Source: Escherichia phage vB_EcoP_EcoN5
Sequence record: MN715356
DNA length: 64,000 nt
Direction: 5' to 3' (one strand)
Below, piece after piece: positions 53,326-55,435 of the stretch. The translations under genes and the position numbers were made by a program. Position 1 is the first letter of the stretch. Every line of letters starts with the position of its first letter. The notes under the pieces were generated by a model, which searched no databases, was not told where the DNA came from, and saw only the letters and a list, made by a program, of their open reading frames with translations.

Positions 53326-55356
53326 TTAACCTCTATTCAATGAACATTTAGGGGAATTACAATAAACTTGATTCATAGAACCAAGCGTACAACTTTCAGC
53401 ATCGCGCCACGGAATCTGCTTAAAACACTCCGAGCAGTAGCCGAGGGTTGACCACATGGCTTTGGTGAAGTCAGTGCTTCGGTTTCCGTCGAAGCTGACA
53501 ACAGTTTTGCGGAGAGCTGTTCGTGATTCAGGAAACACACCTGCTTTCTCAGCAGGTTCCTCCTTTTTTGGCTTAGTTGAGATTGCAAAAACACTGTTGC
53601 TACGTTTCTCAACATAAGCATCAACAACATCTTCCAGAGTGATGCCTGTCTGTTTCGCTGAGGAAGGTAATACAGTCATACGACCGATCATATCTTCAGT
53701 TACACGTAAAGCAAATTCAGGACGACGGGCGTTTGTTGTATCTGTTGCTTTAATCCAGATATAACCATCTTTGATCGTAGCATTAGATACTTTCTTCTTT
53801 ACTTCTACAGCGCAGACTTTACAGATATCTTCACCACGAAGACGACTGAGTTCCTCATCAAACTCATTCTCTGTTTTAACTTCACCACAGATTTCACAAA
53901 CACCAATAGGAGTCTCCTCCTCTTCTTCCTCTTTAGGTTTAGTCAAACCTTCCAGACATTCAGGATGCCAGTAGCACTGATATGCGAAGACTGCTTTAGG
54001 TGCATCCTTCCAGTCAATGTGCTTGTCACAACCACCACAATCACCATGAGAGTGTGCTTCCCAGAATTTACGAGTGATAGTAACGCCATTCTTGTTGACG
54101 AAACTATCATTCATGTCAAAAGGGATATCATCATCAAAGTCAGCAGTAGTAGACTCAGGCTCCTTTTTCTCCAGAGATGGGTCAACAAAACGACCTGCTG
54201 TGATCACTAAGCGAACCATAGCATTAACTTCGGAGATGCAGGATACTGTCCCACGGTAAACAATTTTAGGGTCTTTCAGGGCATCCTGATAAGCCTTAAT
54301 GTCCACGTTATGAACATCACCTTCTATATACTCTTGAGACTTCTCATCGTAGATATAACCGATCATTTTACCACGAGAAGGAACAGCACCAGCAGTTGCA
54401 TAAGGAATAAACTCATGCGGAGTGATTTCCACAGTCATATCACGACGGATATCAATGTTTCGATCGCTTGCGATTTTGTTTTGACTTACCACTGCGTTTC
54501 TTCGACGAACGTCTGCCGCTGTCACTCCCGGCTTCGTGTCGTAAGGATTGCTTGTATTGCTTTTTGAGGAACTTTGATAGTTGCTTTGGCTGTAGTTGTT
54601 CGAATAGTAACTGCCCCAACGATTGATTACCGTAAAAACCGGAAGCTCGTGGGCGACCTCTTCAACCAGAGTCATGCTGTTGTTTGACATATCAAAGATG
54701 TATTCTGTACCAACTTTACATTCAAAATGCTCGTCAATACGGTTCTTATGAGACTTAGAACGCTTCAGAATCCACATCAACATATCTTCTTCAGAAGCAC
54801 CAAACCAGTCTCTGTTACAACGTGCGAGGTGGAATGGACGCTCTTCGTTACGGATGATATGAAGACGGTTATCAGAAGCATCATGCCAGATTAAGGTGAA
54901 AGCACCATCCAGCTTTTGAATAGTCTCTGCTGCACCAATAGTGTTAATAGAGTGGCAGATGTTCTCACTGTCTACCTCGAAGTTTTTACTGTCAGGTAAC
55001 AGGTCTTGGTCCATCAAGGTTCCGTTATGAACCAGAGTGATGTTACCGTGTTGGAAAGGATGGGCGTTCTTGGCGTTAACTGCACCTTTCGTTGCATGAC
55101 GGCTGTGACCAACAATCCATGAAGGCGCTACAGTGTAAGCTGTTTCACCAGTGGTGTGCTTCTTGTACTCATCTTGAAGGATGAATGCGAAAGAAGGAAG
55201 TGCCTCTTTATAAGTGAAGACTTCCTTAGTGCTCTTACGCTGACCAAAGATACCAGAGGAATGCTGCCCTCGGAATACCCCAGCATAAAAGAGTTGGTTA
55301 AATACGTCTAAATCAGTGCTTGACAGATTACCGCCAGCTAATACGATGCCACAAAT
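53326..55356 (-). CDS. class-II (Ntn) glutamine amidotransferase domain protein with Cys-rich C-terminal region; apparent ATT start
   Basis: Hand translation upstream of track start 55017 continues in frame as (I)CGIVLAGGNLS...HSRHATKGAVNAKNAHPFQHGNITLVHNGTL; only codons after the upstream TAG are AAA-ATT; SD AGGTGGA lies 7 nt before ATT. Confidence 0.55.
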   Translation of the reverse strand: MCGIVLAGGNLSSTDLDVFNQLFYAGVFRGQHSSGIFGQRKSTKEVFTYKEALPSFAFILQDEYKKHTTGETAYTVAPSWIVGHSRHATKGAVNAKNAHPFQHGNITLVHNGTLMDQDLLPDSKNFEVDSENICHSINTIGAAETIQKLDGAFTLIWHDASDNRLHIIRNEERPFHLARCNRDWFGASEEDMLMWILKRSKSHKNRIDEHFECKVGTEYIFDMSNNSMTLVEEVAHELPVFTVINRWGSYYSNNYSQSNYQSSSKSNTSNPYDTKPGVTAADVRRRNAVVSQNKIASDRNIDIRRDMTVEITPHEFIPYATAGAVPSRGKMIGYIYDEKSQEYIEGDVHNVDIKAYQDALKDPKIVYRGTVSCISEVNAMVRLVITAGRFVDPSLEKKEPESTTADFDDDIPFDMNDSFVNKNGVTITRKFWEAHSHGDCGGCDKHIDWKDAPKAVFAYQCYWHPECLEGLTKPKEEEEEETPIGVCEICGEVKTENEFDEELSRLRGEDICKVCAVEVKKKVSNATIKDGYIWIKATDTTNARRPEFALRVTEDMIGRMTVLPSSAKQTGITLEDVVDAYVEKRSNSVFAISTKPKKEEPAEKAGVFPESRTALRKTVVSFDGNRSTDFTKAMWSTLGYCSECFKQIPWRDAESCTLGSMNQVYCNSPKCSLNRG

Positions 55357-55435
55357 TTTCTAATCCACCTGAAGGGTAAACCCTTTCATCTAATTAACCT
55401 TTAAATTGTGCCCCTTTGTCAGAGGCACCCATTGA

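Follow-up and report, generated by a model that had tools for sequence, protein, structure and literature searches.

An AUU start for the glutamine amidotransferase gene of Escherichia phage vB_EcoP_EcoN5 and the recurrence of ATT and ATC starts in its phage family

Start of the amidotransferase gene

The DNA analyzed here (the window) is a stretch of 64,000 nucleotides (nt) from Escherichia phage vB_EcoP_EcoN5 (record MN715356), a phiEco32-like podophage (Kuravirus). Its minus strand carries a homologue of phiEco32 gene 83 (gp83), annotated "glutamine amidotransferase", and the subject of this report is the codon at which this gene starts. Over a 2.2-kb stretch of the locus, the 40 best-matching records (SU10, NJ01, phiEco32, and Paul among them) were 96.7–97.9% identical to the window, and the 95–99% identity band held 68 records. 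The open reading frame (ORF) list for the window opens the amidotransferase frame at TTG 55017, which is codon 113 counted from an upstream cysteine codon and yields a product of 563 amino acids (aa). As an earlier, sequence-only reading of the window had stated, the frame stays open upstream of this point. On the minus strand, the order there is TAG (55362–55360), AAA (55359–55357), ATT (55356–55354), and TGT (55353–55351), and the sequence from the Cys codon onward encodes CGIVLAGG. Only AAA and ATT lie between the TAG and the Cys codon, and reading the window sequence on to TTG 55017 gave no in-frame ATG, GTG, or TTG. A Shine–Dalgarno (SD) sequence, AGGTGGA (of the form AGGnGG; 55364–55370, minus strand), is separated from ATT by the 7-nt spacer TTAGAAA (55363–55357), also as described in that reading, and the whole region runs AAGGGTTTACCCTT C AGGTGGA TTAGAAA ATT TGT GGC ATC GTA TTA GCT GGC GG. 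Read from ATT (55354–55356), the frame runs for 676 codons, to 53326. The full coding sequence (CDS; 53326–55356, minus strand), stop codon included, agrees in length and start with phi32_83, SU10_085, and Bas91_0078.

The claim that the upstream frame encodes the N-terminus of an N-terminal nucleophile (Ntn) amidotransferase was borne out by profile searches and alignment. Residues 1 to ~241 (54631–55353, minus strand) form a class II (Ntn) glutamine amidotransferase domain, as judged from Pfam matches, PDB profile matches, and the ratio of nonsynonymous to synonymous divergence (dN/dS). The Pfam families GATase_6 (1.1e-14, 55 bits against a cut-off of 27) and GATase_7 (3.6e-6, 27.4 bits against a cut-off of 25) cover residues 76–193. 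A phmmer search of the PDB with the single N-domain sequence returned no match, and a profile of 12 phage homologues (alignment A1) was needed; this profile matched the glutaminase domain of GlmS (1xff, E = 9e-10), PurF (1ecb), and AsnB. Position 1 of A1, the Cys encoded by TGT (55351–55353, minus strand), aligns with residue 1 of mature GlmS (1xff) and PurF (1ecb), which identifies it as the predicted catalytic nucleophile, Cys1. Invariant in A1 are C1, G2, R85, A87, T88, N110, G111, D128, and S129, and with them the R-x-A-T, H-N-G, and D-S-E motifs of the phage homologues. Judged by sequence, the N-terminus is an intact Ntn amidotransferase active site, and glutaminase activity is predicted.

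This N-terminal segment is also under strong constraint. Between Kuravirus and Suseptimavirus (82–85% aa identity), dN over codons 1–112 was 0.15–0.18 and dS was ~1.5 or saturated, giving a dN/dS of ~0.1 or lower, and a stop or frameshift in these codons occurred in 0 of ~100 genomes. Codons 1–112, which lack a canonical start, are thus both constrained and translated. The same data bear on the possibility that the gene is N-terminally truncated, with a 563-aa product that begins at the TTG/ATG of 55017 and a decaying catalytic remnant in the 112 codons before it. Gene callers and most public records do prefer the start at 55017, and the SU10 proteomics, in which the amidotransferase was detected by 9 peptides, lists "expected" and "identified" masses of 63.8/63.7 kDa, while the full-length protein has 76.2 kDa. 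However, these masses are those of the TTG-truncated database entry and not a measurement, so the data set is silent on the N-terminus; the N-terminal tryptic peptide of the 676-aa entry is CGIVLAGGNLSSTDLDVFNQLFYAGVFR. Against truncation stand the low dN beside saturated dS, the absence of stops and frameshifts, and the catalytic residues, which are all intact, whereas a form without Cys1 and the R-x-A-T motif would be inactive. We therefore consider truncation very unlikely, and the pseudogenised catalytic domain that the sequence-only reading had offered as an alternative is dismissed on the strength of the purifying selection and the intact catalytic residues. The TTG at 55015–55017 (minus strand), used in the ORF list and in many public annotations, would remove Cys1 and the R-x-A-T motif and is best regarded as a false, truncating start.

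Another alternative, likewise raised from the sequence, is that ATT is a sequencing or assembly error and the true codon is ATG. Only the rarity of ATT starts speaks for it. The comparison of the start region in related phages, proposed as a check on the sequence-only reading, was run with a 71-nt query and found ATT in all 97 phage records retrieved; 67 were at least 99% identical, 28 were 95–99% identical, and 2 were 93% identical. The two at 93% are Aeromonas phage BUCT695, and the 95 others (95–100%) are Kuravirus or Suseptimavirus. A pattern search with the start codon left as NNN (ACCCTTCAGGNGGATTAGAAANNNTGTGG) recovered 5 IMG/VR and 6 metagenome contigs, with ATT in 11/11. These 97 deposits are independent and come from varied platforms and years, and ATT persists in relatives across 48% aa divergence: it is kept in Suseptimavirus (82% aa identity), in L140, a phage contig in a Herbiconiux assembly (60%), and in BUCT695 (52%). 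The chance that ATT is an error is consequently negligible.

ATT is thus the sole candidate between the in-frame TAG and Cys1, and it is invariant in the 97 phage records and 11 contigs. Initiation at this codon, as first proposed from the sequence, is supported by the N-terminal constraint, by the Cys1 alignment, and by the presence of ATT in ~100 independently sequenced genomes; at the level of sequence evidence, it is the only reading consistent with all that was found. The comparisons show that the gene must, on this evidence, start at ATT and that the codon and its leader are held under selection.

Existing annotation

The ATT start of the gp83 homologue is itself already in the databases and is no discovery. 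A CDS from the same ATT is annotated in the phiEco32 GenBank and RefSeq records (phi32_83), in SU10 (SU10_085), and in the BASEL phage Bas91 (Bas91_0078). For example, phiEco32 gene 83 (ABY52884.1 / YP_001671828.1) is the same gene, with ~97% nucleotide identity and a CDS of 2031 nt from ATT. Every element described in the sequence-only reading stood, but the start could not be upheld as a novelty for this gene. In a literature search that did not extend to the original phiEco32 papers (Savalia 2008, Pavlova 2012), no paper was found that discusses the ATT start of phiEco32 or of a phage amidotransferase.

Most records do not carry this start. The region was unannotated in 49 of the 56 annotated rows of the 71-nt search, Paul being among the truncated records, and in the Pseudomonas phages O4, IME180, and DMTU_1 (Paundecimvirus) the amidotransferase is annotated from a downstream codon, with loss of Cys1. 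Such truncated annotations arise because gene callers ignore ATT and ATC. As a result, most public Kuravirus records describe an enzyme without its catalytic cysteine nucleophile, and function predictions and proteomics databases inherit the error, of which the SU10 study is an instance. Correcting this widespread mis-annotation is one of two things of value that the analysis adds.

Start codons across the amidotransferase family

To place the window's ATT in its family, homologues were gathered by conserved internal peptides, an approach blind to the start codon, and were kept if the match begins at the Cys; from IMG/VR, the best 80 of 231 relatives were taken. The census comprised 164 informative loci from metagenomic and cultured phages, or 122 lineages after de-duplication at 70% identity. 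The codon before the Cys was ATG in 82 lineages, ATT in 20, TTG in 9, ATC in 8, and GTG in 3, and neither ATA nor CTG was found. ATT and ATC together (28/122 lineages, 23%) outnumber GTG and TTG combined, and in one clade of ~50-kb podophages they precede the Cys in 27/79 contigs (34%). For 22 of the 28 ATT/ATC lineages, there is no canonical in-frame codon between the upstream stop and the Cys.

These lineages are not a single branch of the family. They are scattered among ATG lineages, and a rough neighbor-joining (NJ) tree requires at least 23 switches between ATT/ATC and other codons; there are close pairs that differ only in the start codon (L069 and L063, L122 and L123). Searches of the IMG/VR scans for close relatives of the ATT lineages L049 and L058 found none. 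Metagenome assembly does not account for the pattern, because ATC also stands before the Cys in two cultured Pseudomonas phages, O4 and IME180, whose sequences were read directly; behind a hairpin, the arrangement is AACCTC-GTT-GAGGTT c GGAGGA TAAAATT ATC TGT. Phages K4 and Ty, also of Pseudomonas, are 100% identical to O4 in the start region.

Two close relatives of these phages, PA11 and DMTU_1, share the protein N-terminus of O4 and IME180 but start at TTG, and their leader is different; between the two groups, homology breaks a few nucleotides before the start codon. In another clade, the lineage L183 (L183:355-400) has an SD–spacer–start string near that of the window at 55351–55370 (GGAGGATTAGAAAATTTGT versus GGTGGATTAGAAAATTTGT), behind an unrelated hairpin. 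Together, this string and the PA11/O4 break hint that ribosome-binding-site modules may be exchanged by recombination.

The codon and the Cys codon that follows it also determine what can be read out of frame. In this family, ATT-TGY yields an out-of-frame TTG and ATC-TGY yields CTG, while ATA-TGY would yield ATG; the absence of ATA would fit function because ATA would create this out-of-frame ATG. In the window, ATT-TGT overlaps an out-of-frame TTG (55354–55352, minus strand) that opens an 8-codon ORF, MWHRISWR* (55328–55354). This TTG is a better start than ATT, is served by the same SD, and might compete with it.

Architecture of the ATT and ATC starts

The ATT and ATC starts share a leader that differs from that of the ATG starts. 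Within the SD region and spacer, the 28 ATT/ATC lineages favor G at -12 (89%) and -9 (96%), A at -8 (75%) and -3 (82%), and T at -7 (79%). A strong SD core motif was present in 23/28 ATT/ATC lineages compared with 39/82 ATG lineages, and the energy of the SD duplex was lower in the former (p = 0.0035). We also scored hairpins beside the SD, defined as a stem of at least 5 bp with at least 2 G–C pairs that ends between -24 and -10. Such a hairpin was found in 17 of the 28 ATT/ATC lineages and in 5 of the 82 ATG lineages (Fisher p = 8e-9), and in 11 of those 17 its 3' end lies at -15 or -16. Consistent with this, the minimum free energy of the segment from -38 to -13 had a median of -5.4 kcal/mol in ATT/ATC lineages versus 0.0 kcal/mol in ATG lineages (p = 2e-11). 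Among genes on the same contigs, the hairpin accompanied 63% of amidotransferase starts at ATT/ATC and 5% of those at ATG; for other ATG genes with a strong SD, the rate was 16%.

Outside the Kuravirus-type group (the window, BUCT695, and L140), each lineage has its own stem sequence. Because the sequence differs from lineage to lineage, the hairpin would be selected as a structure. Tight coupling to an upstream ORF showed the opposite distribution, being present in 5/28 ATT/ATC lineages and 43/82 ATG lineages (p = 0.002). Taken together, the comparisons show that ATT or ATC with an optimised, hairpin-flanked SD is a recurrent state of the amidotransferase family. We found no earlier description of the family-wide combination of ATT/ATC and hairpin, and it is this pattern that appears to be new here. 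It is testable and is the second thing of value that the analysis adds.

Leader and upstream reading frame

While the ATT reading of the window has held, three features had been overlooked in it: the recurrence of ATT and ATC across the family, a conserved hairpin 5' of the SD, and a 9-codon upstream ORF. Around the window's ATT lies an island of conservation from ~-50 to +24. Identity over -43 to +15 is 97% with SU7 and 90% with BUCT695, whereas the flanks are at 30–70% with synonymous sites saturated. The putative small hairpin, AAGGG-TTTA-CCCTT (55372–55385, minus strand), was identified by folding and comparison, and its 3' end lies 1 nt before the SD, at position -16.

The case for this hairpin is comparative. 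Although the BUCT695 protein shares only 52% identity with that of the window and, in the domain tree, falls with GAP52, a phage that uses ATG, its leader differs from that of the window at just two positions. One is in the hairpin loop (AAGGG-TTTA-CCCTT to AAGGG-TTAA-CCCTT), and the other is the central SD position that does not pair with the anti-SD (AGGTGG to AGGCGG). L140 reads GAAAGGGATTTATCCCTTGGAGAGGATTAGTAA ATT TGC; it keeps ATT, and its hairpin, AAGGGA-TTTA-TCCCTT, gains a compensating A–T pair. Two structures in the 131-nt minimum-energy fold were rejected by the same comparison. An SD-sequestering hairpin (GGUUUACC/GGUGGAUU) is broken by both BUCT695 substitutions, and the partners of a long-range pairing between the start of the upstream ORF and codons 3–6 are not conserved.

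The upstream ORF (55360–55389, minus strand) is in frame with the gene and would encode MKGFTLQVD* (ATG AAA GGG TTT ACC CTT CAG GTG GAT TAG). In both the window and BUCT695, its stop lies 3 nt before ATT. L140 has in this stretch the 3' end of a 73-aa ORF of helix-turn-helix (HTH) type (L140:1-219), which runs through the hairpin and SD and ends TAG TAA at ATT. A homologue of this HTH ORF lies upstream of the amidotransferase in BUCT695 (L007:139-249), and none was found in the window. By comparison, the 9-codon ORF of the window looks like a remnant of the end of an HTH gene. As a conserved peptide it was rejected, since L140 reads the 5' half in another frame.

This ORF raises the question of the route by which ribosomes reach the AUU. 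If termination–reinitiation were the main route, the 9-codon ORF (ATG 55389 to TAG 55360) would be translated and ribosomes would restart at AUU with the aid of the SD inside the ORF, de novo 30S binding being minor; the protein product would be the same and only the initiation route would differ. The ORF is in frame, has AAAGG 8 nt upstream of its ATG, and is retained in BUCT695, and in L140 a real 73-aa ORF spans the same leader and ends right before ATT. The stop-NNN-AUU geometry is also that of the thrS–infC junction of E. coli (UAA GGU AUU, a 3-nt gap from stop to AUU), where reinitiation has about the same share as de novo initiation and the AUU product lies 6–8 times below that of AUG (PMC3592434). 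However, BUCT695 lacks an SD for the upstream ATG (AAATGT instead of AAAGGT), and L140 has CTG at the position of that ATG. L140 also has a 2-nt indel that puts the 5' half into another frame but leaves the hairpin intact; the RNA structure is therefore what is conserved, and not the peptide. In the family, tight coupling is the exception among ATT/ATC lineages, as given above, and several of them (e.g., L044) have no upstream ORF ending nearby. Reinitiation may contribute in the window, but it is not the conserved feature, and we consider it unlikely to be the main route, at perhaps one chance in a few.

The ATG at 55389 being in frame, a further alternative is that translation starts there and reads through the TAG, and that a 12-residue propeptide is then removed autocatalytically to expose Cys1. 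Ntn amidotransferases with propeptides exist, among them Bacillus subtilis PurF and glutamate synthase. A search of the window found no tRNA gene, hence no suppressor tRNA, and in L140 a double in-frame stop, TAG TAA, abuts ATT on its 5' side. Other ATT/ATC lineages have in-frame stops 2–11 codons upstream with no start codon between, and both BUCT695 substitutions are nonsynonymous in the readthrough frame. Readthrough with a propeptide was rejected on the missing tRNA gene and the L140 double stop, and we rate it as extremely improbable.

Discussion

In our best overall explanation, which we hold with high confidence, the gene encodes a 676-residue class II (Ntn) amidotransferase that is initiated at AUU (55356–55354) through the SD AGGUGGA, and removal of Met leaves Cys as residue 1. 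The SD, 7 nt upstream, would position the 30S subunit at AUU, where the initiator formylmethionyl-tRNA would decode the near-cognate codon, as suggested by what is known of infC and pcnB. Deformylase and methionine aminopeptidase would then strip the formylmethionine, making Cys residue 1, which from knowledge of Ntn amidotransferases is expected to be the obligatory nucleophile; Cys is a permissive second residue for methionine aminopeptidase. The weak start codon would be compensated by an optimised region, in which the SD keeps a fixed distance, position -3 is A, and a small hairpin ends flush with the SD. This hairpin may stack on the SD:anti-SD helix and so keep the 30S subunit in place long enough for a near-cognate start or, alternatively, may insulate the site from upstream ribosomes; both suggestions are speculative. 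A fraction of initiation events may be due to ribosomes that have finished the 9-codon ORF at its UAG, 3 nt before AUU. By analogy with infC, the AUU may hold output low, make it sensitive to initiation factor 3 (IF3), or both.

A non-canonical AUU start is, as a kind of feature, a known phenomenon. AUU and AUC starts are very rare in bacteria, the E. coli examples being infC and pcnB. The closest analogue of the window's start is infC, in which AUU or AUC is the target and sensor of IF3 autoregulation (PMC5499595). Both have a conserved non-canonical AUU/AUC, leave AUA unused, and have an SD, and the gap is UAA GGU AUU in one and UAG AAA AUU in the other. However, the genes are unrelated, one cellular and one from a phage, and the IF3 link of the phage gene is drawn by analogy. 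To our knowledge, a hairpin flush with the SD is not a described feature of infC. The gene pcnB, for poly(A) polymerase I, also has a weak AUU start, thought to limit a potentially harmful enzyme, but it is a single gene and not a family-wide recurrence as in the phage amidotransferases. We know of no hairpin–SD module in pcnB.

Among enzymes, the phage protein resembles GlmS, PurF, and AsnB in having the Cys1 nucleophile right after the initiator and in its R-x-A-T, H-N-G, and D motifs. The cellular genes for these enzymes start ATG-TGY. The phage protein differs in lacking synthase domains and in having instead ~430 residues rich in CxxC pairs. In the PurF-type processing of B. subtilis, a propeptide allows Cys1 to be exposed without Met-Cys. 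That route needs a continuous upstream ORF, whereas the phage gene has intervening in-frame stops.

It is possible, though we put it at somewhat less than even, that the window's ATT is one instance of a recurrent, undescribed initiation module of phage Ntn amidotransferase genes. Such a module would consist of a 5–8 bp hairpin ending at -15/-16, flush with a strong SD at fixed position (GGAGGA, with A at -3 in a 7-nt spacer), then AUU or AUC, and then the Cys codon; recombination at the conserved CGIVG codons may carry it from phage to phage. Several points weigh against these interpretations. The window's small hairpin is weak (-4.6 kcal/mol, with shuffled sequences folding equally well), and its SD carries an internal mismatch. 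In six of the 28 ATT/ATC lineages, a canonical codon does occur in frame upstream, and for those a propeptide is possible. The SU10 data, the only proteomics found, were searched against the truncated 63.8-kDa entry and are uninformative as to the N-terminus. Finally, the family statistics carry no phylogenetic correction and the NJ tree is rough; the missing correction weighs less because there are many switches and the stems differ in sequence.

With 23% of its lineages using AUU or AUC, the family is a ready-made comparative data set for asking what makes a weak start codon workable and what selects for it. If the module is real, expression of the enzyme would depend on the initiation-fidelity state of the host (IF3), as with infC. 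IF3-dependent control during infection is a directly testable hypothesis.

Other features of the locus

The amidotransferase gene has as neighbors an Amidoligase_2 gene (55436–56539) and a gene for a phiEco32-type COOH–NH2 ligase (57163–57969), and farther downstream phiEco32 also encodes an ATP-grasp enzyme and a YtfP-like protein. The gene belongs to a phage cluster of amidoligase, ATP-grasp, and gamma-glutamyl-cyclotransferase-like genes. The C-terminal ~430 residues of the amidotransferase (53326–54630, minus strand) gave no Pfam match. They contain several CxxC pairs, such as CGGCDKH...CYWHPEC, CEICGEV...CKVCA, and CSECFKQ...CNSPKC, which suggest zinc-ribbon modules, and an acidic linker, KPKEEEEEE.

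At the 5' boundary of the leader, directly after the amidoligase TAA (55438–55436), is a predicted GC-rich hairpin (55408–55430, minus strand; -12.5 kcal/mol, z = -3.8). When contigs of Kuravirus and Suseptimavirus are compared, changes in one arm are compensated in the other (GTGCCTCT/AGGGGCAC versus GCGCTCT/AGGGCGC). The T-run behind the hairpin is short, so that a strict terminator scan does not accept it; leaky termination or a role in stability or processing is possible. Scans of the intergenic region returned no promoter-like site in the leader and no strict terminator, and the best Rfam 15 scores for the leader were 16–17 bits against gathering thresholds of 44 and 70.

A motif, TTTAAA[G/T]GT(A/T)AAT, recurs in distant relatives at a distance of 25–45 nt before the amidotransferase start (the upstream regions of L007, L005, L006, L008, L022, L023, L128, and L130); the Pseudomonas phages Bjorn and Lyrsu03 are among these relatives (ATTTACTAAAGGTTAA). 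The BUCT695 version, AAATGTAAT, is close to the phi32_gp36 promoter element tAATGTAtA, and the window version (55391–55407, minus strand) is degenerate. The Herbiconiux daphne assembly that contains L140 (NZ_JANLCJ01) has four short scaffolds (L137–L140) with four different phiEco32/7-11-like amidotransferase genes. These are 48–60% identical to that of the window, and their three readable starts are TTG, GTG, and ATT; the scaffolds are probably contaminating phage DNA.

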